From positions 32,468-96,467 of the forward strand of contig CALGMT010000026.1 of NCBI GenBank assembly GCA_937958885.1: 64,000 nucleotides of DNA, written 5' to 3'. The stretch's first letter is position 1, and every line of letters begins with the position of its first letter. A program made the position numbers and the translations under genes. Of the stretch, positions 695 to 37,076 are shown piece by piece. This DNA is from an uncultured bacterium (GTDB lineage: Bacteria > Verrucomicrobiota > Kiritimatiellia > CAIVKH01). A model generated the notes under the pieces. It was not told the DNA's origin. It made no database searches and was given only the letters and a program-made list of their open reading frames with translations.

Positions 695-1282
695 ATGCGA
701 AACCTGTTCACCATAGCCTTGATCGGCGCGGCGTTTGCCGGAACCGGATGCGAGCTCCGGCAGGCGATGTACGACCAGCCGAAGTACCGCCCGCTCCAAC
801 GCAGCGAGTTCTTTAGCGACCAGCGCGCCTCGCGTCCGTTGCCGGAGGGCACGGTTGCCCGCGGGTTGCTCAAGGACGACGAGCACCTCTACGACGGAAT
901 GGAAAACGGCGCGATGGCTCAAACATTTCCGTTTCCCGTGACGTCCGAGGTCCTCGCGCGCGGCCAGGAGCGCTTCAACATTTTCTGCGCTCCGTGCCAC
1001 GACATGGCCGGGTCCGGCAACGGGATGGTGGTTCAGCGGGGCTACAAGAAACCGGCATCATTCCATGAGCAGCGGCTTCGCGATTCCGCTCCGGGATATT
1101 TCTACGGCGCGATCAAAAATGGATTCGGCCAGATGCCGAACTATGCGGATCAGATTCCCGTGCGCGACCGGTGGGCGATCGTCGCGTACATCCGCGCACT
1201 TCAGTTGAGCCGAAACGCCACGATTGACGATGTGCCGCCCGAGGAGCGCGCTGCGCTGGAGACGGCAAAGGCAGGGCATTGA
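695..1282 (+). CDS. Mono-heme cytochrome c lipoprotein (ActE-like)
   Basis: CAPCH heme-binding motif; N-terminal lipoprotein-type signal (LIGAAFAGTGC); M-P-N-Y motif typical of class I cytochrome c; position in act-like operon. Confidence 0.6.
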   Translation: MRNLFTIALIGAAFAGTGCELRQAMYDQPKYRPLQRSEFFSDQRASRPLPEGTVARGLLKDDEHLYDGMENGAMAQTFPFPVTSEVLARGQERFNIFCAPCHDMAGSGNGMVVQRGYKKPASFHEQRLRDSAPGYFYGAIKNGFGQMPNYADQIPVRDRWAIVAYIRALQLSRNATIDDVPPEERAALETAKAGH

Positions 1283-1286
1283 TTTC

Positions 1287-2501
1287 ATGAACGAGCTGAT
1301 CCAATCGATTCGCGGCAAAGCGCTCGGCGTTGGCGTCCTCGGCACCGCCGCGACCGCTGCGGGTTATTTCATCGCAGGACCCGACCAATTTTTTCAGTCG
1401 TGGTTGATGGCCTTTTGTTTTGTGTTTGCCTTTGCCGCCGGCGGACTCGGCCTGCTGATGATCCATCATCTGGCGTCCGGCCGCTGGGGATTCTGCCTGC
1501 AACGCCCCTATGAAGCGGCGGCGAAGACCTTCCCGCTGATCGCCCTGTTGTTTGTTCCTCTGCTGTTCGGCATGGATCGGCTCTATGCCTGGGTGAACCC
1601 CGAAGCGCACCACGACCATGTGCTCGAACATGTGATGCACCATAAAGGCATGTATCTCAACGTGACCGGCTTTTATATCCGCGCGGCGGTGTATTTTGCC
1701 GTCTGGATCGGCCTTTCCTCGCTCCTGCTACGCTGGTCGCGGCTACAAGATGAGCACAAAGCGGATGCCGAGCTCTATGGACGCAAGATGCGCATGTTGA
1801 GCGGGATTGGTCTGGTGATTTTCGGATTGGCCGTCACATTCGCATCCTTTGACTGGGCCATGTCCGTAGAGCCCAAGTGGTATTCCGCCCTGTATGGCGC
1901 AACGTTCATGGTCGGGCAGGGCGTGGCCACGCTTTGCTTGATGGCATTTGTTGCGCGCATGCTCTCGCGCGATAAGCAATACGGCTCGGTAATCGGCGCG
2001 CAGCAATATCACGACATCGGCAACCTGATCTTTGCCTTTACGATTCTCTGGACGTATATGAACGTCGGCCAGTTCGTGATCATCTGGTCCGGCAACCTGC
2101 CCGAGGAAATTGAATACTACCTGCATCGCAGCCACTCCCCCTGGCCCGAACTGGTCACCGGCATCGCCATTCTCCATTTCGCGGCGCCGTTTGTCCTCCT
2201 GCTCTTCAAGGCGAACAAGAAGAACCCCAACATCCTCGTAAAAATCGCCGGCGGTTTGCTCGTGATGCGGTTTGTCGACTATTTCTGGACGCTGATGCCC
2301 GCGTTCCGCCACGATCATTTCCACGTGTCGTGGGTGGACATCGCCGCGCCAGTGGGTTTGATGGGCCTCTGGCTATACGTTTTCCTGGGCGCGCTGCAAA
2401 AACGGCCCTTCCTCCCGTTGAACGACCCCCGATTCGCCTCTATATTGTCTCACCCTGAAGAACGAGACACCGGTTGGGAGGCGGACGCTTCCGATGCATA
2501 G
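1287..2501 (+). CDS. NrfD/PsrC-like polytopic membrane subunit (ActF-like)
   Basis: ATG at 1287 just after the actE stop (1280-1282). About 10 TM helices with a NrfD-family pattern. Confidence 0.55.
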   Translation: MNELIQSIRGKALGVGVLGTAATAAGYFIAGPDQFFQSWLMAFCFVFAFAAGGLGLLMIHHLASGRWGFCLQRPYEAAAKTFPLIALLFVPLLFGMDRLYAWVNPEAHHDHVLEHVMHHKGMYLNVTGFYIRAAVYFAVWIGLSSLLLRWSRLQDEHKADAELYGRKMRMLSGIGLVIFGLAVTFASFDWAMSVEPKWYSALYGATFMVGQGVATLCLMAFVARMLSRDKQYGSVIGAQQYHDIGNLIFAFTILWTYMNVGQFVIIWSGNLPEEIEYYLHRSHSPWPELVTGIAILHFAAPFVLLLFKANKKNPNILVKIAGGLLVMRFVDYFWTLMPAFRHDHFHVSWVDIAAPVGLMGLWLYVFLGALQKRPFLPLNDPRFASILSHPEERDTGWEADASDA

Positions 2502-2904
2502 TCCATCCACAGATCCTGTCAAGAATCCGAGCGGCGCGGATTTCGCTGATCGCGATATTCCGGTCTCAAAGATTCTGGTCTTTGGGTTTTACATCGCGCT
2601 GTTCACCGCCGTCTCGTTTGTCGGGCTGCGCTTCCTTTACCTGGCGTTGGATCGCAAGGCGGAGCGCGCAGACGAGGCTGTTGCCGCGTTTGCGCGAGAG
2701 ACGCGCGTGCTGCCGCCGGAACCCCGCCTTCAAGTGGATGAACCCGCCACATGGGCGCGGGAAAAAGCGCGCCAGCAGGCGATGATCTCCGGCTACGAGT
2801 GGGTGGATGCCAATGCCGGCGTGGTGCGCATTCCGGTCGAGCGGGCGATGGAAATTCTCGCCGAGCGCGGTCTGCCCGCGCGCGCGGAAGGAGTGAGCCC
2901 GTGA
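2494..2904 (+). CDS. Hypothetical single-pass membrane protein (possible ACIII accessory subunit)
   Basis: 136-aa ORF with one hydrophobic helix. Overlaps neighbouring genes by 8 and 4 bp (operon-like). Confidence 0.35.
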   Translation: MHSPSTDPVKNPSGADFADRDIPVSKILVFGFYIALFTAVSFVGLRFLYLALDRKAERADEAVAAFARETRVLPPEPRLQVDEPATWAREKARQQAMISGYEWVDANAGVVRIPVERAMEILAERGLPARAEGVSP

Positions 2905-3749
2905 ACGCGCGGATCTTCATCGGCGCGATTTGCGCGTGGGCCGCAACGTCCGGCGTATATGCAGCCACTCGTTCGACTCCGATCGAGCAAAAAAACGAAC
3001 CGCCGCCGCCCGCTGTGTTGAAGCGAACCGGTTTCGATCAAAACCTCGGCGCGCAGTTGCCGTTGGATGTCAACGTGCGCGATGAAGAAGGCCGCGTGGT
3101 GCCGCTCGGGACGTTCTTCAAGGATCGCCCGGTCGTCTTCTCGCTCGTTTACTACAACTGCCCGATGCTGTGCACGTTGGTGCTCAATGGCATTGTGGAT
3201 GTGTTGAAGCAAATCGCGTTCGAGCCCGGACGCGATTACGACATCGTCACCTTGAGCTTCAATCACGAAGAAACGCACCTGCTCGCAGCGCAGAAAAAAG
3301 CCAACTACCTCGAAATGTTCAGCAAACCGGGCGCCGCGGCCGGATGGCACTTCCTTACAGCCGACGAGCCGGCCATCGCCGCGATTGCGGACACGGCCGG
3401 ATTCAAATTCGCGTGGGATGAAAAAGCGCAGGAATTCGCGCACGGCAGCGGCATCATGATTGCCACGCCGGATGGAAAGCTCTCTCATTATTTTTACGGC
3501 GTCATGTACAGCCCGCGCGATGTCCGTCTCGCGCTGGTCGAGGCCTCGTCCGGAAAGATCGGCAACCCAGTCGATCAACTCATGCTGCTCTGCTATCACT
3601 ACAATCCCACGATGGGCGGATACAGCGCGGCGGTGATGAACGTGGTCCGGCTAGGATGCTTTGCGACGATAATTGCGGTGGGCGGTTTTATCGCACTGTC
3701 GTGGAATCGCGAACGTAAAGCCATCGCACCCCAATCAATTCCCGCATAG
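2901..3749 (+). CDS. SCO1/SenC family copper chaperone
   Basis: GTG start at 2901 overlapping the previous stop (GTGA). Thioredoxin-like CPMLC (CxxxC) motif, N-terminal membrane anchor, sits between the ACIII and oxidase genes. Confidence 0.7.
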   Translation: MNARIFIGAICAWAATSGVYAATRSTPIEQKNEPPPPAVLKRTGFDQNLGAQLPLDVNVRDEEGRVVPLGTFFKDRPVVFSLVYYNCPMLCTLVLNGIVDVLKQIAFEPGRDYDIVTLSFNHEETHLLAAQKKANYLEMFSKPGAAAGWHFLTADEPAIAAIADTAGFKFAWDEKAQEFAHGSGIMIATPDGKLSHYFYGVMYSPRDVRLALVEASSGKIGNPVDQLMLLCYHYNPTMGGYSAAVMNVVRLGCFATIIAVGGFIALSWNRERKAIAPQSIPA

Positions 3750-3772
3750 GCGGATCGGGTGCGACACCAACT

Positions 3773-4720
3773 ATGAAAAGTGTTTTTAATATATTGCCCG
3801 AGCAGGCCTCGACGGTCGCGTCCCACGTAGACGCGATATACTTATTTCTGATTGCCATCAGCGTCGTTTTCACGCTGTTGGCCGCGGGTCTCGTCATCGT
3901 ATTCGGAGTGAAATTCCGCAGACGGCCGGACGGACCCGCGCCCGAAAAACCGCATGAGGATAGCCGCCTTGAAATGGCCGCCGGCGCTTTTCTTCTCGTG
4001 TTGCTCCTCGTGCTTTTTGGATGGGGCGCAAAGGTCTATTTCCAAAACACGCGCCCGCCCGCTGACGCGATGGAGATTCTGGTTACCGGCAAACAGTGGA
4101 TGTGGAAACTTCAGCACCCGAATGGCCGGCGCGAAATCAACACGCTCCACATCCCGGTGGGCAAGCCGGTTCAGCTCACCATGACCTCGGAAGACGTGAT
4201 TCACAGCTTCTTCATTCCGGCCTTTCGCGTGAAGCAGGATGTGCTTCCAGGGCGCTATACGCGCCTCTGGTTCCAGGCAACCAAGACCGGCCGTTACCGC
4301 CTCTTCTGCACGGAATACTGCGGGACCGAGCATTCCATGATGGGCGGATGGGTCAATGTCATGACCGCGGCCGATTATGAACGATGGCTCTCGGGCGAAG
4401 TCGCGGGCGCGGCTCAAGAGACGCCCGTGCAGGCCGGCGAGCGGCTCTTCACCCAACTCGGCTGTCAAACATGCCACAATGCAGGCTCCGGCGCGCTCGG
4501 TCCGAACCTGGCCGGCGTGTTCGGACACACCGTCAAACTCGCCGACGGCAGCGAGGTGATCGCCGACGAGGAATACTTGCGCGAATCGATCCTTAACCCG
4601 CATGCGAAACTCGTGGCGGGTTTTGCCCCCGTCATGCCGGTGTTCAAAGGCATTATCAACGAAGATCAACTCCTCCAGTTGATCGCCTACATCAAGAGCC
4701 TCAGCGGAGCGTCCAACTGA
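3773..4720 (+). CDS. ctaC: Cytochrome c oxidase subunit II with fused C-terminal cytochrome c domain (caa3-type)
   Basis: Two N-terminal TM helices; CuA motif H..CTEYCG.EHSMM; C-terminal CQTCH heme c site. Confidence 0.85.
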
Positions 4721-4721
4721 T

Positions 4722-6371
4722 ATGAGCGAAACGGCGACCATCGCGGCGACTGCCGAGCCGAAAAATTATCTAACGAACCGCCACACGATCCAGTCGTGGC
4801 TCTTCACGGTCGACCACAAACGGATCGCGATCCTCTATCTGATCAGCCTGACCGTGTTCTTCCTCCTCGGCGGCGCGGCGGCGGCCCTGTTCCGCCTCGA
4901 CCTGATGACGCCTCAGGCCGACCTGCTCCAGTCCGAGACCTACAATAAATTGTTCACGATGCACGGCATCGTGATGATCTTCTTCTTCCTTGTCCCGTCA
5001 ATCCCCGCCGTGATGGGCAACTTCCTCGTTCCCGTGATGATCGGCGCGAAAGACGTCGCCTTCCCCCGGCTGAACCTCTTGAGCTGGTACGTCTTCATGG
5101 CCGGCGGCCTTATCGCACTCGGCGCCATCATCAGCGGCGGGGTGGACACCGGCTGGACGTTCTACACGCCGTACAGCAGCATGTACGCAAATTCCCACGT
5201 GATCCTCGCCGTGGCGGGTGCGTTCATTGCCGGTTTCTCATCGATCATGACGGCTCTGAATTTCATCGTCACCATCCAGAAAATGCGCGCGCCCGGCCTC
5301 ACCTGGTTCCGCCTGCCGCTCTTTATCTGGGCGATGTACGCCACAAGCCTCGTCGTGATCCTCGGCACGCCGGTGGTCGCGATCACGCTGGTCATGATTT
5401 TCATCGAGCGCTTCTTCCAATTCGGCCTGTTCGATCCCGCGCTCGGCGGCGATCCGGTCCTCTTCCAACACCTCTTCTGGTTCTATTCGCACCCCGCGGT
5501 TTACATCATGATCCTGCCCAGCATGGGCGTGATCAGCGAGATTGTGTCCTGCTTCTCCCGCCGCCGGTTGTACGGCTACACCTTCGTTGCGTTCTCCTCG
5601 CTCGCGATCGCGGTGATCGGATTCTTCGTGTGGGGCCACCACATGTTTGTCAGCTCCCAATCGGCCTATGCGGGGCTCATCTTCTCGTTTCTGACCTTCT
5701 TCGTCGCGATTCCGACCGCCATCAAGATCCTCAACTGGATCATGACGATGTACAAGGGATCGATCTCCTTCGACACCCCGATGCTTTACGCATACGGCTT
5801 TCTCGGCCTCTTCACGATCGGCGGTCTGACCGGTCTGTTCTTGAGCACCATGGCGACGGATATCCATCTGCACGACACCTATTTCGTCGTCGCGCATTTC
5901 CACTACGTCATGGTCGGCGGCGGCGTGATGGGGTTCCTCGGCGCCTTGCATTTCTGGTGGCCCAAGATGACCGGTCGCATGTACCCGGAAGGCTGGGCCA
6001 AGTTCGCCGCCATCGTCATTTTTATCGGCTTCAATCTGACCTTTTTCCCACAATTCCAACTCGGCTACCATGGCATGCCGCGCCGCTACCACACCTACGC
6101 GGAGGAATTCCAGATTCTCCACGTCATGTCCACCGCCGGTGCGTCGGTGCTTGGGGCGGGATACCTCATCATGGCCGCCTACCTCGGCTGGTCCCTCTTC
6201 AAGGGCAAGCGCGCCTCCGCCAACCCGTGGGATGCGCGCGGCCTCGAGTGGGAGACCACCTCGCCGCCGCCCACCGAAAACTTCCTGTCCACACCGACCG
6301 TCACACAGGAGGCCTATGCGTATGACAAGCCTTCCGTGACGCATGTCCCTCCGGAGGAGAAACGTGTCTAG
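4722..6371 (+). CDS. ctaD: Cytochrome c oxidase subunit I
   Basis: 549 aa with canonical heme-copper oxidase motifs ([29 protein letters not shown]). Confidence 0.95.
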
Positions 6372-7083
6372 CCACGCCCACGCGCACGTCGCGCATCACT
6401 TCGAGAGCGCCGAGCAGCAGCGCCAATCCGCGCAGCTCGGCATGTGGATATTTCTCGTCACCGAGGTCATGTTTTTCGGCGGCCTCTTTGCCGCCTATGT
6501 CGTCTATCGTTCGCTGTATCCGGAGGCCTGGGTTGTCGGCAGCCACCTGTTGAGTATCGGGCTTGGCGGGTTCAACACCGCGGTGCTGCTCGCCTCGTCG
6601 CTCACAATGGCGCTGGCGGTGCACGCCGCGCAGACCGACAAGCGGAACGCCACCGCGATGTGGATTGTCCTCACGATGGTCCTCGGCTTTGTCTTCCTCG
6701 GCGTCAAAGTTGTCGAATACGCCGGCAAGTTCGAACACCACCTCGTACCCGGCGCGCATTTCCATGTCGATCCGATGGCCGAACTCGCGAAGCTGGAGGC
6801 GGCCGGCGTCCACGTGGGCCAGCACCTGCGCCACGCCTTTGAGACGGCGAACCCGAGCCATGTTCAACTCTTCTATTCACTCTACTTCGCGATGACCGGC
6901 ATGCACGCAGTGCACATGATCATCGGCGCCGGCCTCATGATCTGGCTGCTCGCCAACACGCTGAAGGGCCGCTATTCCTCCGCTTACTACAACCCCGTCG
7001 AAGTCACCGGCCTCTATTGGCACTTCGTGGACATTGTCTGGATTTTCCTGTTCCCCATGCTCTACCTGATCGGGAGACACTGA
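6343..7083 (+). CDS. ctaE: Cytochrome c oxidase subunit III
   Basis: HHFE...multi-TM COX3 pattern; start could alternatively be the GTG near 6364. Confidence 0.85.
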
Positions 7084-7418
7084 TGAGCGAACATCACGTC
7101 ATGCCTATCCGCGTCTACCTGACCATTATCGCTATTTTGATGGCGCTTACGGTCGCCACGGTCTGGGTCGCCTTCCTCGATTTCGGCTATCTCAACACCG
7201 TGATTGCCGTCGGCATCGCTGTCATAAAGGCCCTGCTCGTCGTCATGTATTTCATGCACCTGAAGTACGCGGCGCCGATTACCCGCCTCTTCGCCGGGGC
7301 CGGCGCCGTATTTTTCGTGATCCTCATTGCGATCACCCTGAGCGACTACCGATCCCGCGATTGGTTCCCATTCCCCGAGCCGTGGGAGCAAGCCCATGAA
7401 GCTCCCGCGTCGCACTAA
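7083..7418 (+). CDS. Cytochrome c oxidase subunit IV (prokaryotic caa3 small subunit)
   Basis: ATG at 7083 overlapping the ctaE stop; ~110-aa protein with three TM helices (COX4_pro-like). Confidence 0.6.
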   Translation: MSEHHVMPIRVYLTIIAILMALTVATVWVAFLDFGYLNTVIAVGIAVIKALLVVMYFMHLKYAAPITRLFAGAGAVFFVILIAITLSDYRSRDWFPFPEPWEQAHEAPASH

Positions 7419-8307
7419 ATCCAACTCAGCGGACGCGCCGAGCTGGTCCGACTACTATCAGCTCGCCAAGCCGCGCATCGTCGGCATGGTGCTGGTCACC
7501 ACCGCCACAGGCTTCTTCGTCGGCGGCGCGGGCATCGGATCCTGGGAGCGCACCCTCCTGCTCGTCCTGACCCTCCTCGGCACTGCCCTCGCCGCCGCGG
7601 GCGCAGCGGTTCTAAACAACTACCTCGAGCGCGACACCGACGCGCGCATGGAGCGCACCCGCCTGCGCGCCCTGCCCGCGGGCCGCATCGAGCCCGCCGT
7701 CGCGCTCGCGCTCGGTGTCCTGCTCGTCCTCGGGGGCGTCGCGATACTCGCGGCGCTGGTCAATCTTCTCGCCGCCTTTCTCGTCCTGCTCACGGCGTTT
7801 CTCTACGTGCTTGTGTACACGCCGCTCAAAAAAGTGACCTGGCTCAATACGCCGATCGGCGCGATCCCCGGCGCGTTGCCGCCGATGGTGGGGTGGGCGG
7901 CCGCCGCGAACGAACTGCATGTTGGCGCATGGATTCTGTTTGCCATTCTCTTTCTCTGGCAGCACCCCCACTTCTACGCCATTGCGTGGATGTACCGCAG
8001 CGACTACGCCGCCGCCGGCTACAAGATGCTCTCAACCATCGACCCCACCGGGCGCCGCGTCTTCCGTCAGGCCATCCTCTTCTCCCTCGCGCTGATCCCT
8101 GTATCCATTGCCCTCACCGGCTTCGGCCTCGCGGGCCGGACCTACCTCGTCGGCGCTGTATTCCTCGGATCGGCCTTGCTTGCCGCCAGCTTGCACCTCG
8201 CCCAGCACCAGCGCCTGGCCGACGCGCGCCGCGTTCTGCTCGCCTCCGTCGTCTATTTGCCCCTTCTACTCGCCCTCATCGTGCTCGACGCCGGACTCGC
8301 CCGCTGA
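7396..8307 (+). CDS. ctaB: Protoheme IX farnesyltransferase (heme O synthase)
   Basis: UbiA-family prenyltransferase pattern (YYQLAKPRI..., multiple TM helices); linked to the oxidase operon. Confidence 0.85.
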   Translation: MKLPRRTKSNSADAPSWSDYYQLAKPRIVGMVLVTTATGFFVGGAGIGSWERTLLLVLTLLGTALAAAGAAVLNNYLERDTDARMERTRLRALPAGRIEPAVALALGVLLVLGGVAILAALVNLLAAFLVLLTAFLYVLVYTPLKKVTWLNTPIGAIPGALPPMVGWAAAANELHVGAWILFAILFLWQHPHFYAIAWMYRSDYAAAGYKMLSTIDPTGRRVFRQAILFSLALIPVSIALTGFGLAGRTYLVGAVFLGSALLAASLHLAQHQRLADARRVLLASVVYLPLLLALIVLDAGLAR

Positions 8308-31057: not shown

Positions 31058-31170
31058 GCGGGAGGGGGAGGGGGAGGGAGAGGGAGAGGGAGAGGGAGCG
31101 GGAGCGGGAGAGGGAGAGCGAGAGGGAGAGGGAGAGGGAGAGCGAGAGGGAGGAAGAGCGAGGGAGAGGG
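31058..31170. repeat. Homopurine hexanucleotide microsatellite (GGGAGA/GGGAGC/GCGAGA), about 19 units
   Basis: Read directly: ~113 bp of G/A with occasional C, hexamer period. Lies between the convergent zwf and rubredoxin genes. Confidence 0.9.
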
Positions 31171-31173
31171 CAT

Positions 31174-31253
31174 TTCCATGCTCTGTAAAAACTTTTTTAA
31201 GAACTTCCATGCTCTGTAAAAAATTAATTTGCGGCTTCCATGCTCTGTAAAAA
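31174..31253 (+). repeat. Three tandem exact copies (31-bp period) of TTCCATGCTCTGTAAAAA
   Basis: Copies start at 31174, 31205 and 31236; directly follows the hexanucleotide tract. Confidence 0.9.
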
Positions 31254-31274
31254 ATTTGTTTGCCGCGCGCGCCG

Positions 31275-33130: not shown

Positions 33131-33634
33131 GTGAACATTATCGTGGCCGTTTCGGACAACGGCGTGATCGGACGCGGCGGCGGGCTGCCGTGGCGGCTGC
33201 CGGACGATCTGCGCCGGTTCAAAGCATTGACCATCGGGCATCCGGTCATCATGGGCCGGCGGACGTGGGAATCGCTGGGGCGTCCGTTGCCCGGTCGGCG
33301 CAACATCGTGGTCACGCGCAATCGAGCGTATGCCGCGCAGGGGGTTGAAATTGCGGGTTCATTGCAGAAGGCCCTGGCGCAGGTCGCCGACGCCGCGGAG
33401 GTCTTTGTGATCGGCGGCGCATCGCTCTATGCCGACGCGTTGCCGCTTGCCCATCGGCTGTATCTGACGCGCGTTCACGCCGAGGTGGAGGGGGACGTGC
33501 GATTTCCCGCGTGGTCGCCCGACGACTGGCAGGAGGTTGAAGCCGACGCGCATCCGGCGGATGCGCAACATCCTTTCGCGTTCACCGCACTGGTCTTCGA
33601 ATCTCGCCGCAATCGGCTTGATAAGCGCATTTGA
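33131..33634 (+). CDS. folA: Dihydrofolate reductase
   Basis: GTG start; IVAVS.NGVIG..G.LPW and GR.T.ES motifs; classic thyA-folA pair. Confidence 0.85.
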   Translation: MNIIVAVSDNGVIGRGGGLPWRLPDDLRRFKALTIGHPVIMGRRTWESLGRPLPGRRNIVVTRNRAYAAQGVEIAGSLQKALAQVADAAEVFVIGGASLYADALPLAHRLYLTRVHAEVEGDVRFPAWSPDDWQEVEADAHPADAQHPFAFTALVFESRRNRLDKRI

Positions 33635-33652
33635 CGCGCGTATTGTCTCATC

Positions 33653-34039
33653 GTGTCCCGCGCCGTCCATTTCATCGTCGCCGTTGCCCTATTTGCCGCG
33701 TCCAATTTGCATCTGCCCGTGCTGCAGGTGGTGGCGTGGACGGGCATGATTGTCTCCTACAGCCAGGGCCGAACGGTTTCAGAGGCGGTTCGCATGACCT
33801 TCGACGGCGAGCATCCGTGCCCGATGTGCAAAGCCATTAAGAAGCAGCAAACGGAGCAACCGCAGCAACTTCAAGTTGCGTCGCCCACAATGAGATTGAT
33901 GGCCGTTTGGGAACCCCCTGACGGTTACGAGCATATCCGCATTATGGTGGATCGTCTGGGCGATTTTACTAACGCCTGGGCTTCATTTTCATGGCCGCCC
34001 GAGCGGCTTCCTCCGCGCGTACACGCCATCTTCGGCTAG
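33653..34039 (+). CDS. Hypothetical small membrane-anchored protein with an HPCPMC (CxxC) motif
   Basis: N-terminal TM helix; single CPMC motif; no family recognised. Confidence 0.4.
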   Translation: MSRAVHFIVAVALFAASNLHLPVLQVVAWTGMIVSYSQGRTVSEAVRMTFDGEHPCPMCKAIKKQQTEQPQQLQVASPTMRLMAVWEPPDGYEHIRIMVDRLGDFTNAWASFSWPPERLPPRVHAIFG

Positions 34040-34130
34040 CCGTACGACGATCGTTCAAGAGCGCACAACCCGTCCAACTCTCGGCGGGCGGAGTGCGCCG
34101 TCCAATAAAATCAATTCGGAGGAATCTTTT

Positions 34131-34928
34131 GTGAAGAAAGTTTTACTGTGTGTCTTAGCTCTGCCGCTTGCTGTTCAAGCGGCCACCATTACCAACGTCC
34201 CGATGCAGGGCGGCATGATCATGCCGATGTTCGAATATCACGACGATCACGGGCATCTTCATGTGATGATGCCGACGAATGTCCCCCAGTTGACCCCCTT
34301 GTTGGTCAGTCATCCGGCGGACAATTTCGATCCGGCCGATCCGTGGTTCAACAACCTGGATCCCAGCGCGCAGGGATATTCATTCAGCCGCCGGTATGGC
34401 TGGGTGATGAGCGGCATGAGCGATCCGCTCCCGCCCAACACAGCAATATGGATTCGAAAACTTTCCGGCTCGCCTGAGCTGGGGTTTTATCGCTACAGCG
34501 GGTCCATGCCCAAAGCGTGGGAGCCGATCTACGGCACTGACGGTTCGCCTATGGCGCGGATGTGGAACGGCATGATGTTCCATCCGGGCGTCTCTGCGCC
34601 GCCCGGAACAAACCCGCTGTCGGCGACGTTCGAGGCCTATCTGGTGGATACCGTCACGTCGAACGAAGTCGCCGGCTCCAGCACAGGGCCGTTCGTCCTC
34701 AACTTCACGAATGTGGGGGATGGGCGTCCGGTGTTGGATGCAGCGATGAAGTTTGCCGTGCAATGGGATCCTGCTGCGACAAACTGGGGCTTGGAGTGGG
34801 CGCATTCGCCTACATCCACCGTGTGGAATGCTGTGACCAATATGCCTGTTGAGATCGACGGTTCCGCTACCGTGATCCAGGACCCGAGCGCAGGCTCGCG
34901 CGTCTATCGGCTGCGCAGATTGCCATAA
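34131..34928 (+). CDS. Secreted hypothetical protein with a Met/His-rich N-terminal region (candidate metal-binding)
   Basis: Signal peptide MKKVLLCVLALPLAVQA; MQGGMIMPMFEYHDDHGHLHVMMP segment; Trp-rich. Confidence 0.45.
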   Translation: MKKVLLCVLALPLAVQAATITNVPMQGGMIMPMFEYHDDHGHLHVMMPTNVPQLTPLLVSHPADNFDPADPWFNNLDPSAQGYSFSRRYGWVMSGMSDPLPPNTAIWIRKLSGSPELGFYRYSGSMPKAWEPIYGTDGSPMARMWNGMMFHPGVSAPPGTNPLSATFEAYLVDTVTSNEVAGSSTGPFVLNFTNVGDGRPVLDAAMKFAVQWDPAATNWGLEWAHSPTSTVWNAVTNMPVEIDGSATVIQDPSAGSRVYRLRRLP

Positions 34929-34992
34929 CGCACTCGTCCGGCCTCGACCCCGCAACGGGTCGAGGCCGGATTCGTGCGGCGAGGATGTAGTC

Positions 34993-35658
34993 ATGCGAAG
35001 GGGGAATGCGGCCGCTAATGCGTTCACGCTGATCGAGTTGCTGGTCGTGCTGGCGATCATCGCGATTCTGGCCGGCCTGGTCGTGCCGTCCTTGTTGCGC
35101 GCGCGCGAGCAAGCGTTCCGGGCGGCGTGTTCATCCAATATGCGGCAGATCGCCATCGCAACGTTGTCGTTTGCGGATGATCGCGACGGGCGGTTTCCCC
35201 GAAGCCAGCATTCGGCTTTTACCCATGGCGAGCGTCCATGGGCGCGCGCAGTGGCCACGTATCTCGGATCGGATGATCGACGCTGGACGAATCTGCTCAA
35301 GGGCGTGTATCGATGCCCGCGCGACGGCCGCCGGAATATGTTGAGCTACGGCTTGAATGTCTATTTTGAACTGGGGCCTGAAGACGATTATGAAGGGCGG
35401 CCGGCCATGTGGCGTACCCGCGATGCGGTGCCGCGGCCGTGGGCCACGATTTTATTGGGGGAGAATGACAGCGACGCGGACCATATCATGCCCAATTTCT
35501 GGGGTTCCATTTCGGACGTCGCCGATCTTGCCTTCGACCGGCACGGGGAGGGCGCGAATTATGTGTTTGTGGACGGGCACGTCGAATTTCGAGCTTTGAA
35601 TCGGGTGTTTGACCCTCAACGAAATGTCGACGCATGGAACCCCCTTAAAGCAGAATAA
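34993..35658 (+). CDS. Prepilin-type N-terminal cleavage/methylation domain protein with C-terminal H-X9-DG (DUF1559) domain
   Basis: NAFTLIELLVVLAIIAIL class III signal; FVDGHV motif near the C-terminus. Confidence 0.8.
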   Translation: MRRGNAAANAFTLIELLVVLAIIAILAGLVVPSLLRAREQAFRAACSSNMRQIAIATLSFADDRDGRFPRSQHSAFTHGERPWARAVATYLGSDDRRWTNLLKGVYRCPRDGRRNMLSYGLNVYFELGPEDDYEGRPAMWRTRDAVPRPWATILLGENDSDADHIMPNFWGSISDVADLAFDRHGEGANYVFVDGHVEFRALNRVFDPQRNVDAWNPLKAE

Positions 35659-35678: not shown

Positions 35679-37076
35679 ATGCAGACGAGAACCTCTGCGA
35701 TAACGGCATTGGCTGAAGAACAGGCGCGGGCGACGGCGCCGCGGATCGGATGGGTCGGCTTACACGGGTGGCTCATCGCAGCGGCGATGGCGCTTGCGGT
35801 AGCTGCGGGGCTCGCCATGCGCGTGGAATGGCTTACGCCGCAACTGGACGCGATGCAGGCCCGGACCTTTGGCGTAGCGCTTACGGCACACGGCGCGCTT
35901 TCGTTTTACTTTGTGCTGATCCCGTCCGCGTTCATTATCCCCATGCTGATGATCGCGCAACGCGGGCGCGCGGATGGAACTATGCCATTTCCTCGACTGG
36001 TGCGCACAGCCGCGTATTTGCAAGCCGCGGGATTGCTTGCGCTGTTGATGCTCGTCCTGACAGGAGGGAGCGAGGCGGGCTGGAATGGCGCGTCAATTTT
36101 TGGCGGGTCGTTTAATGATGCGTCTCTAATCGGCTTGGCCGGCCTCCTGGCCGCGCTGGCGATGGTGGCGCAGGGTGTGCACGCCGCGATGGTCGGCGCG
36201 ATGGCCAACGGCACGGATCAAGACCGCACGGTTTCGCGCGTGGCGTTATTCACCTCCGGCGTGATGGCCTTGCCGACGGGCGGTGTTCTGGCGCTGTGCA
36301 TGGCGAGTGTGCTGATGGATGGTTTGGGCGTTGCCTCCATGTTCAACGCGGCGTTCGGCGGCAATCCGGCCCTCTATGAGCGCTTATTTCAACTCTTCAA
36401 GGTTTCCGCGCTCGCGCTGTGTTGCGTGACGCCCGCCTTTGCGTTTGCGGCCTTGGCGAGCCGCGACCCGCTTGGCGCTCGCGCGCAGATCGCGCTCAGA
36501 GTGCTCGCGGCCGTTGCACTCGTTGCCGCCGTTCCGATCGGCGGCATTCTGCTGTCTTGGAAATACGCGATGGCTGCGGCGGTCTTTTTCGGGTTGGGCG
36601 TGTTTTCGATGAGGCGCAGTCGAGGCGCTCCCGAACACTGGGCGACATACGGCATTTGGGCAATGTTTTGGATTTCCGGCATTCAGGGCTTGATGGCCGG
36701 ATTCATGACCTCGCTTCCGGGCGCACTGTCCATCTTCAGCCAGACCACCCTGGAGAGCGCGGCGCTGCACATGACCGCGCTCGCGGCGTTCGGGTTCGGC
36801 CTGCCCGCCGTGTGGCTGGCAAGCGATGAAGCGGCAGGGCGCGCGAGCAGAGCGCCGCGGATATTTTTCTGCGCCCTCGTGCTTTTTGCCGGCGTTCAAC
36901 TGACGTTTTTGCCGGATGCCTTGCTCGGATTGCGAGGACTCTCATACCGCGCAAACGCGTATCCAGCCGAGTTTCAGGTGCTCAAGATTTTTGGGACAGC
37001 GGGGTCAACAGTCATGGTGACCGGTCTCGCGCTGGTGTTCGGGTCCCTGCTTTTCAGGAAACCGCGCGCGGAGTAG
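35679..37076 (+). CDS. Heme-copper oxidase subunit I-like polytopic membrane protein lacking the canonical CuB histidines
   Basis: Direct comparison with the ctaD product in this window: LTPQ.D..Q..T......T.HG..(S)F.F.L.PS / FPRL / AGL.AL....GG...GW / GG.P.L...LF / LTF.P blocks are conserved, but WFYSHP reads QLFKVS and GHHMF is absent. 465 aa, about 12 TM helices. Confidence 0.55.
   Translation: MQTRTSAITALAEEQARATAPRIGWVGLHGWLIAAAMALAVAAGLAMRVEWLTPQLDAMQARTFGVALTAHGALSFYFVLIPSAFIIPMLMIAQRGRADGTMPFPRLVRTAAYLQAAGLLALLMLVLTGGSEAGWNGASIFGGSFNDASLIGLAGLLAALAMVAQGVHAAMVGAMANGTDQDRTVSRVALFTSGVMALPTGGVLALCMASVLMDGLGVASMFNAAFGGNPALYERLFQLFKVSALALCCVTPAFAFAALASRDPLGARAQIALRVLAAVALVAAVPIGGILLSWKYAMAAAVFFGLGVFSMRRSRGAPEHWATYGIWAMFWISGIQGLMAGFMTSLPGALSIFSQTTLESAALHMTALAAFGFGLPAVWLASDEAAGRASRAPRIFFCALVLFAGVQLTFLPDALLGLRGLSYRANAYPAEFQVLKIFGTAGSTVMVTGLALVFGSLLFRKPRAE

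Follow-up and report, generated by a model that had tools for sequence, protein, structure and literature searches.

A conserved three-gene cassette of Verrucomicrobiota headed by a candidate copper-sensing arrest peptide

The window, by which we mean the whole 64,000-nucleotide stretch of DNA that was analyzed, carries folA followed on the plus strand by four open reading frames, here called ORF1 to ORF4 (Table 1). The gaps are 18 nt between folA and ORF1, 91 nt between ORF1 and ORF2, 64 nt between ORF2 and ORF3, and 20 nt between ORF3 and ORF4. The original prediction described three co-oriented genes closely spaced downstream of folA, and their coordinates, strand and gaps all hold, as do the motifs quoted from the translations (DGEHPCPMCK at ORF1 residues 51-60 and MQGGMIMPMFEYHDDHGHLHVMMP at ORF2 residues 25-48). 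ORF2 has at least 749 homologues, with about 1,750 relatives detectable, all of them unannotated, while a word search returned 31 homologues of ORF1 and 80 more were found adjoining ORF2. Given these many homologues, ORF1 and ORF2 are genuine genes rather than chance reading frames.

Table 1. Genes and sequence features of the cassette and its surroundings (window coordinates; a slash marks a cleavage site).
Feature	Position	Strand	Description	Basis
ORF1	33653..34039	+	128 aa, GTG start; first cassette gene; candidate copper-sensing leader/arrest peptide, CutF/CruR-like architecture	
ORF1 residues 5-36	33665..33760	+	N-terminal hydrophobic export/anchor segment with conserved QxxAWxxM	sequence, AF2, alignment
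ORF1 residues 54-59	33812..33829	+	HPCPMC; invariant H-x-C-x-x-C, candidate Cu(I) site	alignment
ORF1 residues 118-122	34004..34018	+	RLPPR (CGG CTT CCT CCG CGC); arrest-like proline motif, 6 residues before stop	
Anti-Shine-Dalgarno strand, predicted	34008..34015	+	UUCCUCCG, within ORF1 Pro-Pro codons	
Stem-loop, predicted	34061..34098	+	ORF1-ORF2 spacer; GCGCAC...GUGCGC, inner CCGUCC/GGCGGG	MFE fold
ORF2 Shine-Dalgarno region	34117..34124	+	CGGAGGAA, predicted to be sequestered by 34008-34015	
ORF2	34131..34928	+	265 aa, GTG start; secreted, all-beta; candidate Cu(I) binder of the periplasm, new family	
ORF2 residues 1-17	34131..34181	+	Signal peptide, MKKVLLCVLALPLAVQA/A, site AVQA/A	sequence; AxA/A conserved in alignment
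ORF2 residues 25-33	34203..34229	+	MQGGMIMPM; conserved Met motif	
ORF2 residues 148-152	34572..34586	+	MMFHP; conserved Met/His motif	
ORF2 residues ~200-265	34728..34925	+	C-terminal beta-sandwich domain, repeat module	
Strong stem-loop, predicted	34929..34978	+	ORF2-ORF3 spacer, without U-tract	
ORF3	34993..35658	+	221 aa; dedicated prepilin-type DUF1559/H-X9-DG protein	
ORF3 residues 9-30	35017..35082	+	Prepilin cleavage/methylation signal NA/FTLIELLVV..., Glu at +5 (A/FTLIE)	PF07963, TIGR02532
ORF3 residues 184-195	35542..35577	+	H-X9-DG motif HGEGANYVFVDG, H184-x9-D194-G195	TIGR04294
ORF4	35679..37076	+	465 aa; COX1-like membrane protein; clade-specific downstream neighbour, outside conserved cassette	

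ORF1, ORF2 and ORF3 form an unannotated cassette in about 80 species, and all 81 related loci belong to Verrucomicrobiota. Cultured carriers are Limisphaera sp. VF-2 and 4302-co (L036 and L049). Homologues of ORF1 and ORF2 are present in 81/81 loci each and of ORF3 in 78/81; genes in these loci were called with a cassette-trained codon log-odds model seeded by HMM hits. Order and strand are cleanly 1-2-3 in 68 loci, four further loci carry tandem or extra copies of ORF2, and the remainder are truncated at contig ends or interrupted; ORF1 is always the first gene of the cassette. The association holds even among homologues of about 30% identity, where the order is rearranged or genes are fused (L091, L092 and L093). 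The three genes are inherited as one unit, and the conservation of gene order in relatives that had been proposed as a check on treating them as one set is borne out. A literature search found no description of an ORF1-ORF2-ORF3 cassette.

Of the six canonical histidine ligands in subunit I of heme-copper oxidases, two bind the low-spin heme, one binds the high-spin heme and three bind CuB. ORF4 matches COX1 weakly (PF00115, 55 bits; TIGR02891, 71 bits where the cutoff is 671) and belongs to a family of only eight members, in which only H71 and H364 are conserved and the positions of the CuB histidines of canonical P0308 hold other residues or deletions. We rejected ORF4 as a genuine heme-copper oxidase subunit I because of its sub-cutoff TIGR02891 score and the loss of the CuB histidines; its earlier description as a degenerate COX1 paralogue following ORF3 is accurate for the window. 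The same description had joined this gene to the cassette in a single copper/heme module, whose members might for example be assembly factors for the degenerate paralogue. Such a module would fit the co-orientation and 20-nt gap in the window, the position of all family members with a readable upstream region after ORF3 or its remnant (window, L083, L089 and L087), and the copper genes that fill the downstream slot in other loci. Against it, the COX1-like gene lies 3' of the cassette only in the window, L083 and L089 (one of the 81 genome loci, the window and one metagenome contig), and the nearest relatives carry DUF2237 in its slot. L087 retains folA and the COX1-like gene despite having lost the cassette apart from an ORF3 remnant, and 27 kb upstream the window encodes an entire caa3 oxidase operon that includes a Sco-like gene of its own. 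The absence of CuB histidines from ORF4 also means that it offers no copper site for the cassette to serve. Because the pairing is confined to three loci and L087 kept the COX1-like gene without the cassette, the heme/COX1 part of the module is unsupported. The distribution largely refutes the joint module, which we consider very improbable, and the cassette and the COX1-like gene are linked only locally. Scanning metagenomes with ORF4 returned no match, and genomic context was taken from exact look-ups.

The proposed connection to copper fared better and is supported by gene context. Pfam annotation of 134 genes at positions +1 and +2 relative to the cassette identified SCO1-SenC in 18, CusF_Ec in seven, HMA in seven, HlyD_D23 in four and ACR_tran in three, and the 128 genes at -1 and -2 included fewer than two members each of SCO1, CusF and HMA. 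At least one copper gene is present within the four downstream genes in 23/73 loci, in every case on the same strand, and the types encountered are Sco1, CusF-Sco fusions, periplasmic HMA proteins and CusBA. Copper chaperone and efflux genes have repeatedly been appended 3' of the cassette on the same strand, with Sco1, CusF, HMA and CusBA enriched downstream and not upstream. Recognizable copper genes lie nearby in only about one third of loci.

Closer inspection of ORF2 revealed a Cys-free mature protein with 6% Met and an AF2 model of pLDDT 88. Of 89 sequences, all have M29 and M31 of the Met motif, 78 have M25 and 70 have M33; M149 and H151 each occur in 88. Among distant homologues (26-39% identity) M29, M149 and H151 are invariant and M31 is often replaced by His. 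The Met/His segment singled out by the original prediction is therefore conserved in its invariant M29 and M31 but not in its His cluster, since H37, H40, H42 and H44 occur in only 21-48% of homologues. Many unrelated proteins contain repeats that match profile positions 205-270, and in distant homologues a PEP-CTERM signal replaces this C-terminal module. Pfam yielded no domain for ORF2 and 22 relatives at E<=10, NCBIfam yielded no family for ORF2, and the PDB returned no profile hit, the best Foldseek match having E=7.6e-3 and TM<=0.32. ORF2 resembles CusF (PF11604) and PCuAC (PF04314), which are likewise secreted, Cys-free beta proteins with Met/His ligands (a candidate site in ORF2) and whose genes adjoin Sco1 or CusBA, as ORF2 often does. 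It differs from them in being a 265-aa protein of two beta domains, and it matches neither the family models of CusF, PCuAC and CopC (PF04234) nor any solved fold.

Single genomes of Planctomycetota and Verrucomicrobiota encode very large numbers of DUF1559/H-X9-DG pilin-like proteins, and a literature search found no function for DUF1559. ORF3 is such a protein, its prepilin N-terminus and H-X9-DG motif having been proposed originally, and scores above cutoff for N_methyl (PF07963, 28.6 bits against 21.2; TIGR02532, 27.4 against 16.3), DUF1559 (PF07596, 32.9 against 23.3) and H-X9-DG (TIGR04294, 27 against 19). Its N-terminus resembles the first helix of pilins and GspG, and FTLIE is preceded by G in 42 orthologues and by A in 34. 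While ORF3 shares three family models (PF07963, PF07596 and TIGR04294) with DUF1559 proteins at large, it differs from them in forming a tight orthologous group tied to ORF1 and ORF2, with orthologues directly 3' of ORF2 (E=1e-60 to 1e-97) and motifs of its own, namely FPRSQHS, DH and four His. H73, H164, H184, H196, C46 and C108 are each at least 90% conserved.

These features could also belong to a unit for pilin-dependent secretion, adhesion or uptake, as DUF1559 proteins may form in PVC bacteria, that has nothing to do with metal. The Met-rich motif of ORF2 would then serve in recognition or sorting, and clustering of envelope genes would account for the copper neighbors. Such a unit would accommodate the failure of ORF2 to match a copper family or fold, its generic C-terminal repeat domain, the PEP-CTERM sorting signals of its distant homologues and the two thirds of loci that have no copper gene nearby. 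We nevertheless regard it as improbable, given that the enrichment of Sco1, CusF, HMA and CusBA is specific to the downstream side and the same strand, that ORF2 proteins spanning 26-100% identity share two invariant Met and one invariant His, plus a Met/His swap, and that ORF1 contains an invariant HxCxxC.

We examined ORF1 through an alignment of 24 sequences, in which Q25, A28, W29, M32, T49, F50, H54, P55, C56, C59, P116 and P121 are invariant. The hydrophobic segment follows an N-terminal Arg and is modeled by AF2 as two helices (residues 2-16 and 20-36), a split that could place the CxxC on the cytoplasmic side, and the family alignment exhibits no consistent AxA cleavage site. Across 80 sequences TFDGEHPC averages 87% column identity, and both it and QxxAWxxM persist in the distant loci L092 and L093. 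The intervening linker is variable, with an identity of just 18-32%, and AF2 predicts no compact fold for the protein (pTM 0.31; pLDDT 52-56 over residues 70-115). At the other end of the protein PP falls within the last 20 residues in 79/80 sequences and PPP occurs in 50/80, the proline motif lies 1-13 residues from the stop, and the distance from CxxC to PP is confined to 55-68 residues with a median of 59. Pfam searches were negative for ORF1 (E<=0.1), for 24 members of its family (E<=10) and for two distant ORF1-like proteins (E<=1), and NCBIfam returned no family match for ORF1. ORF1 had been characterized as a CxxC membrane protein with DGEHPCPMCK as its sole motif; the motif is present, but QxxAWxxM and RLPPR are equally conserved, and this simple description overlooked the hallmarks of a regulatory arrest peptide. 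Judged by its sequence, ORF1 resembles a stalling peptide that senses copper and would turn on the gene that follows.

Two DUF2946 proteins provide the closest precedents. CutF of Rhodobacter capsulatus is a copper-sensing nascent exported protein that controls cutO (PMC9973294; bioRxiv 10.1101/2025.02.05.636593), with GPPPRL-stop as the arrest motif (bioRxiv 10.1101/2025.02.05.636593). CruR (Bp2923) of Bordetella pertussis is encoded by an upstream ORF with CXXC and RAPP, and the hallmarks of DUF2946 (PF11162) are an export signal, CXXC and RAPP (PMC9426467). ORF1 shares with CutF its place as the small first gene of a copper operon, a Cys pair as Cu site (a candidate site in ORF1), a C-terminal PPPR-type motif near the stop, a short spacer, and a Shine-Dalgarno (SD) sequence of the next gene that is masked, by prediction in our case, through RNA pairing that would open when a ribosome stalls. 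Where CutF has its N-terminal export signal, ORF1 has a hydrophobic segment that may be one. With CruR it shares the CXXC, an R-x-P-P a few residues before the C-terminus (R-L-P-P in the window), constrained motif spacing, a position at the head of a copper-related operon and, in the long-spacer clades of the cassette, a long structured intergenic region. ORF1 thus has the Cys pair (C56/C59 after H54-P55), the C-terminal proline motif and the operon-first position of CutF/CruR-type upstream ORFs, whereas it neither matches the DUF2946 model nor has the spacing of about 45 residues.

ORF1 has no homology to CutF or DUF2946 detectable with Pfam, carries HPCxxC where CutF has CxxxC, and separates its cysteines from its prolines by about 59 residues (55-68) rather than about 45, a distance that is constrained but longer. 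Unlike CutF, it has a highly conserved N-terminal segment that may remain uncleaved. In ORF1 the arrest codons themselves form the predicted masking strand, in CutF an intergenic stem-loop does the masking, and the cargo comprises a new secreted Met-rich protein and a pilin-like protein as opposed to a multicopper oxidase. CruR differs in working through Rho-dependent termination, in that copper relieves its arrest, and in controlling a TonB-dependent transporter. Separately, a 118-aa gene upstream of czcCBA on Xanthomonas pLH3.1 has no Pfam match.

The start of ORF2 lies 7 nt downstream of the SD sequence GGAGGA, and in the minimum-free-energy fold positions 34008-34015 pair with 34117-34124 at a pairing probability of 0.99. 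We considered SD sequestration alone as the distinguishing mark of ORF2 and rejected it, because a control revealed that high pairing probabilities are common in this GC-rich window (median 0.74, with 4/24 genes at 0.95 or above). The argument therefore rests on cognate/non-cognate and synonymous-site tests. Cognate tail-SD duplexes are stronger than non-cognate ones both in 18 short-spacer loci (p=0.0002) and in 79 loci (p=0.0012), and synonymous recoding weakens tail-SD pairing at p<=0.02 in L011, L013, L014, L081, L083 and the window (p=0.02). CCUCC occurs at the tail PP in 11/18 short-spacer loci against 4.7 expected (P ~0.001), and CCU makes up 8% of Pro codons in the genome of the window. 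The flanks covary, with CCUCCG:CGGAGG in the window and CUCCUCGA:UCGAGGAG in L013, L014 and L083. This anti-SD codon pattern is limited to about 11/18 short-spacer loci and is absent in the long-spacer clades, which have no SD. Within the clade of the window, the modeled pairing of Pro-Pro-Arg codons with the SD suggests stall-dependent unmasking of the ORF2 SD.

Before adopting a regulatory role, we weighed whether ORF1 is instead a stable Cys protein anchored in the membrane that acts as a metal relay or as a thiol-disulfide partner and complexes with secreted ORF2 and pilin-like ORF3 through its proline tail as a docking motif, in which case the cassette would still handle copper. Strict conservation of QxxAWxxM and TFDGEHPC extends to distant loci, and for QxxAWxxM it is more than one would usually see in a plain export signal and fits a stable membrane protein. 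Co-inheritance of the three genes and occasional fusion of ORF2 with ORF3 suggest physical interaction, and ORF1 has no DUF2946 match. A stable protein would not, however, account readily for a 45-residue linker whose length is constrained despite its poor conservation and low AF2 confidence, or for a proline motif 1-13 residues from the stop that matches the proven CutF arrest motif PPPR; nor would a purely structural role explain synonymous-site selection for pairing with the ORF2 SD. On balance we think a stable, non-regulatory ORF1 rather unlikely.

We give an even chance to the reading in which the three genes form a self-contained, Verrucomicrobiota-restricted cassette that handles envelope copper, with ORF1 as a nascent-chain sensor of the CutF/CruR type for ORF2 and ORF3. 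In this mechanism the hydrophobic N-terminus of ORF1 would engage the membrane and its invariant HPCxxC would bind copper, such that when the ribosome reaches the PP(P)R about 59 residues later, pausing would depend on the metal state of the emerged chain. In the clade of the window, the rare codons CUU CCU CCG would pair with the ORF2 SD 100 nt downstream, and a ribosome held on these arrest codons would free the ORF2 ribosome-binding site. ORF2 would be secreted and bind Cu(I) via a Met/His site formed by M29, M31, M149 and H151, with ORF3 as its membrane-anchored pilin-like partner. Copper may turn the cassette on for detoxification, as with CutF, or off for acquisition, as with CruR.

To our knowledge, the copper-sensing arrest peptides CutF and CruR were described between 2022 and 2025, within DUF2946 only and mostly in Proteobacteria. 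The proposed regulation would be of this known kind, while the protein families carried by the cassette appear to be new. More tentatively, and with some doubt, we propose that the cassette represents an independent, non-DUF2946 lineage of arrest peptides in Verrucomicrobiota, in which the polyproline arrest codons CCU CCN would double as the anti-SD strand of the next gene, the spacer of other clades would form an undescribed three-way-junction RNA, and control would extend to a new Met/His copper-binding family and a dedicated DUF1559 pilin-like protein. If so, CutF/CruR architecture in a sequence-unrelated PVC family would imply that the mechanism is either wider in scope or a product of convergence. 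Arrest codons that also act as anti-SD strand would make an unusually compact switch, and ORF2 would add a new periplasmic copper-binding family. It would also bring the first functional assignment for any member of the greatly expanded DUF1559 family of PVC bacteria, for which ORF3, as a conserved orthologue tied to copper genes, offers a first experimental handle.

Finally, both spacers of the window contain predicted stem-loops (Table 1). Searching Rfam with the window spacer gave no match, the one SAM-III hit being at chance level (19 bits against a cutoff of 45), and the intergenic RNA motif of other loci likewise had no Rfam match. The hairpin between ORF2 and ORF3 has a folding energy of -42.9 kcal/mol (z=-5.15), with 0/200 shuffles folding as well, and a comparable hairpin (z<=-2) is present in 37/72 loci.

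All four open reading frames lie on the + strand where the original prediction placed them, and the peptides it quoted are right. ORF1 (a CxxC protein), ORF2 (a secreted Met/His protein), ORF3 (a prepilin/H-X9-DG protein) and the COX1-like ORF4 follow folA with gaps of 18, 91, 64 and 20 nt. ORF3 exceeded the cutoffs for the prepilin N-methylation motif, DUF1559 and the H-X9-DG domain and ORF4 weakly matched COX1; neither ORF1 nor ORF2 matched Pfam or NCBIfam. ORF1 has a GTG start without a Shine-Dalgarno (SD) sequence; it may be leaderless or share a transcript with folA. A promoter-like site, TTGATA-17-TATTGT, falls within the folA 3' end and stops 6 nt before this start.

Features of the window and of related loci (L numbers: other genomes or metagenome contigs)
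Feature	Position	Strand	Remark
caa3-type oxidase operon	695-8307		complete
cytochrome c	695-1282		caa3 operon
Sco-like CxxxC protein	2751-3749		caa3 operon; local HMM only, no Pfam match
COX2 with cytochrome c domain	3773-4720		caa3 operon
canonical COX1	4722-6371		caa3 operon; 494 bits
COX3	6343-7083		caa3 operon
heme O synthase	7396-8307		caa3 operon
tandem repeats, both	31062-31263		G6PD-rubredoxin intergenic
repeat 1	31062-31170		~18 copies of GAGGGA
repeat 2	31174-31263		~3 copies of a 31-nt AT-rich unit
promoter-like site	33618-33646
folA	end at 33634	+	upstream neighbour of ORF1
ORF1	33653-34039	+	128 aa
UUCCUCCG	34008-34015		in RLPPR codons of ORF1
CGGAGGAA	34117-34124		ORF2 SD region
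ORF2	34131-34928	+	265 aa
stem-loop	34929-34978		ORF2-ORF3 junction, after ORF2 stop
ORF3	34993-35658	+	221 aa
ORF4, COX1-like	35679-37076	+	465 aa
ORF3 remnant	L087:5795-5950
ORF2-like/ORF3-like ORF	L092:6783-8222		479 aa
CzcI/CutF-like candidate	L090:17328-17684		118 aa
long-spacer RNA	L043:3122-3215; L032:4451-4537; L044:7886-7972; L012:7085-7176		17 more loci

A 5.8-billion-protein collection contains at least 749 homologues of ORF2, none of them annotated, and a word search returned 31 homologues of ORF1. When scanning one genome per species for ORF2 relatives, we found 91 and kept 80 loci, a few with evidently mislabelled MAG titles, all from Verrucomicrobiota (Kiritimatiellia, Verrucomicrobiales and Limisphaerales, two of the Limisphaerales being cultured Limisphaera strains). 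We added L006 and ran six-frame HMM searches on this set, which detected relatives of ORF1 and ORF2 in 81/81 and of ORF3 in 78/81, on a shared strand and in 1-2-3 order in every case, showing that the order of the three genes is conserved. Seeded gene calls recovered 1-2-3 in 68 loci and extra tandem ORF2 copies in four, the remainder reflecting contig-end cuts or an insertion; in L082, L084, L085 and L086, two to three extra divergent ORF2 paralogues stand in tandem between ORF1 and ORF2. The ORF3 orthologues matched at E=1e-60 to 1e-97, far beyond generic DUF1559 similarity, and therefore form one dedicated orthologous group. The association also outlasts great divergence: beside ORF2 homologues of ~30% identity, L091 carries an ORF3-like gene, L093 an ORF1-like gene ending in PPVPPPRMA-stop, and L092 both a fused ORF2-like/ORF3-like gene and an ORF1-like gene whose product contains TFSGKAPCSKC. 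The fused gene of L092 reads as a single ORF, an ORF2-like domain with a PEP-CTERM-like end joined directly to an ORF3-like prepilin protein; it may be a true fusion, or a gene boundary may have been missed.

The COX1-like gene is outside this conserved unit, and the COX1/heme link of the original prediction is not supported, since only L083 of the 81 genome loci has the gene 3' of the cassette, the gene is kept where the cassette is lost, and the encoded protein has none of the three CuB histidines (H71 and H364 are its only conserved His). Its family has only eight members. Metagenome contig L089 has the same arrangement as the window, L088 contains COX1-like, DUF2237 and amylase genes, and the window's nearest relatives, L007 and L009, have DUF2237 and an amylase-like gene directly 3' of ORF3. 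The cassette loss is seen in L087 (Kiritimatiellae MAG, GCA_025054615.1), which shares the window's G6PD-rubredoxin-udp-thyA-folA synteny and continues from folA through a decayed ORF3 C-terminus remnant (tblastn E=1e-5) to the retained COX1-like gene. The window's caa3-type oxidase operon sits 27 kb upstream.

The predicted copper association, for its part, is backed by comparative genomics. For every locus, we predicted the genes flanking the cassette and searched the nearest two on each side against Pfam. The 134 downstream genes included SCO1-SenC (18), CusF_Ec (7), HMA (7), HlyD_D23, the CusB barrel-sandwich (4), and ACR_tran (3); among the 128 upstream genes we observed response regulators (7), ACR_tran (3) and HlyD_D23 (2), and none of SCO1, CusF and HMA came up to two members. 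When neighbours were clustered, several arrangements recurred, each with its genes on the same strand as the cassette; in these the cassette is followed by a membrane-anchored Sco1 (CxxxC) and a CusF-Sco fusion lipoprotein (14 loci), by a periplasmic MxCxxC HMA protein (7 loci), or by CusB and CusA (4 loci). A copper-family gene lay within four positions of the cassette in 23 of 73 evaluable loci. These neighbourhoods support a copper link that is guilt by association, yet is directional and Cu(I)/Ag(I)-family specific.

AF2 confidently modelled ORF2 as an all-beta protein (pLDDT 88, pTM 0.71) with the Met motif on a flexible N-terminal arm; Foldseek against the PDB returned generic beta-sandwiches only (best E=7.6e-3, TM<=0.32), and profile searches of PDB and Pfam gave no match. 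An exhaustive profile search collected 1,751 relatives. The family core is the N-terminal domain of ~180 residues, and the C-terminal domain, ~65 residues long, is a repeat module of wide occurrence, in whose place distant relatives have a PEP-CTERM signal. The Met part of the predicted Met/His segment is conserved (M29 and M31 in 89/89 sequences, M25 in 78/89, M33 in 70/89), but the His cluster is not (H37, H40, H42 and H44, 21-48%); M149 and H151 occur in 88/89. Across 23 sequences of 26-53% identity, only M29, L76, M149 and H151 are invariant, with position 31 alternating between Met and His. Such conservation would be expected of a Cu(I) Met/His site, suggesting a candidate site.

CruR (CXXC and C-terminal RAPP; PMC9426467) and CutF (Sec signal, CxxxC and C-terminal GPPPRL-stop; PMC9973294; bioRxiv 10.1101/2025.02.05.636593) are copper-responsive upstream ORFs in which the nascent chain senses copper and proline-motif ribosome arrest controls the downstream gene. 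The ORF1 family has the same architecture: a conserved hydrophobic N-terminus with QxxAWxxM, a TFDGEHPC block that is 87% identical, with H54, C56 and C59 invariant, a linker of only 18-32% identity but constrained length, and a C-terminal proline motif. Proline makes up 31% of the last 15 residues versus 7% elsewhere, and PP (79/80 sequences) or PPP (50) lies 1-13 residues before the stop. The second Cys and last PP are 55-68 residues apart (median 59), longer than the ~45 reported for DUF2946, the family of CruR and CutF, and Pfam, run on 27 sequences in all, did not detect ORF1 as a member of that family. The main rival explanation makes ORF1 a stable membrane subunit, not a regulator; its AF2 model has no compact fold (pTM 0.31; pLDDT 52-56 over residues 70-115). 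Separately, on Xanthomonas perforans plasmid pLH3.1 (L090), a hypothetical gene directly 5' of czcCBA-like genes encodes a protein with a signal-like N-terminus and C-terminal PFRPPIAG that also has HVHIH and a CC pair; it has no Pfam match and looks CzcI/CutF-like.

The RLPPR codons of the window's ORF1 (CGG CUU CCU CCG CGC) contain UUCCUCCG, complementary to CGGAGGAA at the ORF2 SD, and this pairing is present in the minimum-free-energy structure with probability 0.99; SD sequestration is common in this GC-rich window (median pairing probability 0.74; >=0.95 in 4/24 genes). Relatives use CCU CCU CGA; in these genomes CCU accounts for 4-16% of the Pro codons and CGA for 1-15% of the Arg codons. 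In L013, L014 and L083 the SD flanks match the tails, CUCCUCGA(U) with (A)UCGAGGAG. Cognate tail-SD duplexes were stronger than non-cognate ones across 18 loci with ORF1-ORF2 spacers <=135 nt (permutation p=0.0002) and over all 79 loci (p=0.0012), and synonymous tail recodings seldom paired equally well (p=0.02 for the window; p<=0.01 for L011, L013, L014, L081 and L083). CCUCC occurs at the tail PP in 11/18 loci versus 4.7 expected (P about 0.001, relatedness ignored); the pattern is absent from the other seven, and in all three of these that we examined the SD pairs inside the spacer. Together, these comparisons support selection for tail-SD pairing. By stalling at the proline codons, a ribosome would occlude the anti-SD strand and make the ORF2 start accessible, much as the CutF model proposes. 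Collectively, these data are best explained by a copper-responsive envelope cassette, a reading to which we give about an even chance and every functional step of which we infer: ORF1 would be a CutF/CruR-like nascent-chain sensor, ORF2 a new secreted Met/His protein and ORF3 its dedicated pilin-like partner.

Spacers of ~200-250 nt lack the SD and instead carry a conserved RNA element, which a covariance model derived from 12 sequences located in 21 loci (E<1e-4), always between ORF1 and ORF2; it is absent from the window and has no match in Rfam. In this Limisphaerales-type RNA, three helices meet at a junction, and the CCGG and GCCGG blocks, both unpaired, are invariant. We observed 86.7% of cells paired versus 34-50% with partners slid, and compensatory change in 14/15 pairs, scores reached by 0/500 shuffles.

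At the ORF2-ORF3 junction, the window has a 20-bp stem-loop (-42.9 kcal/mol, z=-5.15) without a U-tract. It might determine the ratio of ORF2 to ORF3 or else act on a short transcript, as a terminator or a stabiliser, and single-operon transcription is therefore only putative; attenuator, processing site and stabiliser are its candidate roles. A comparably strong hairpin (z<=-2) occupies this junction in 37/72 loci. Elsewhere in the window, the tandem repeats between G6PD and rubredoxin give rise to PL/SP-repeat pseudo-ORFs on both strands.
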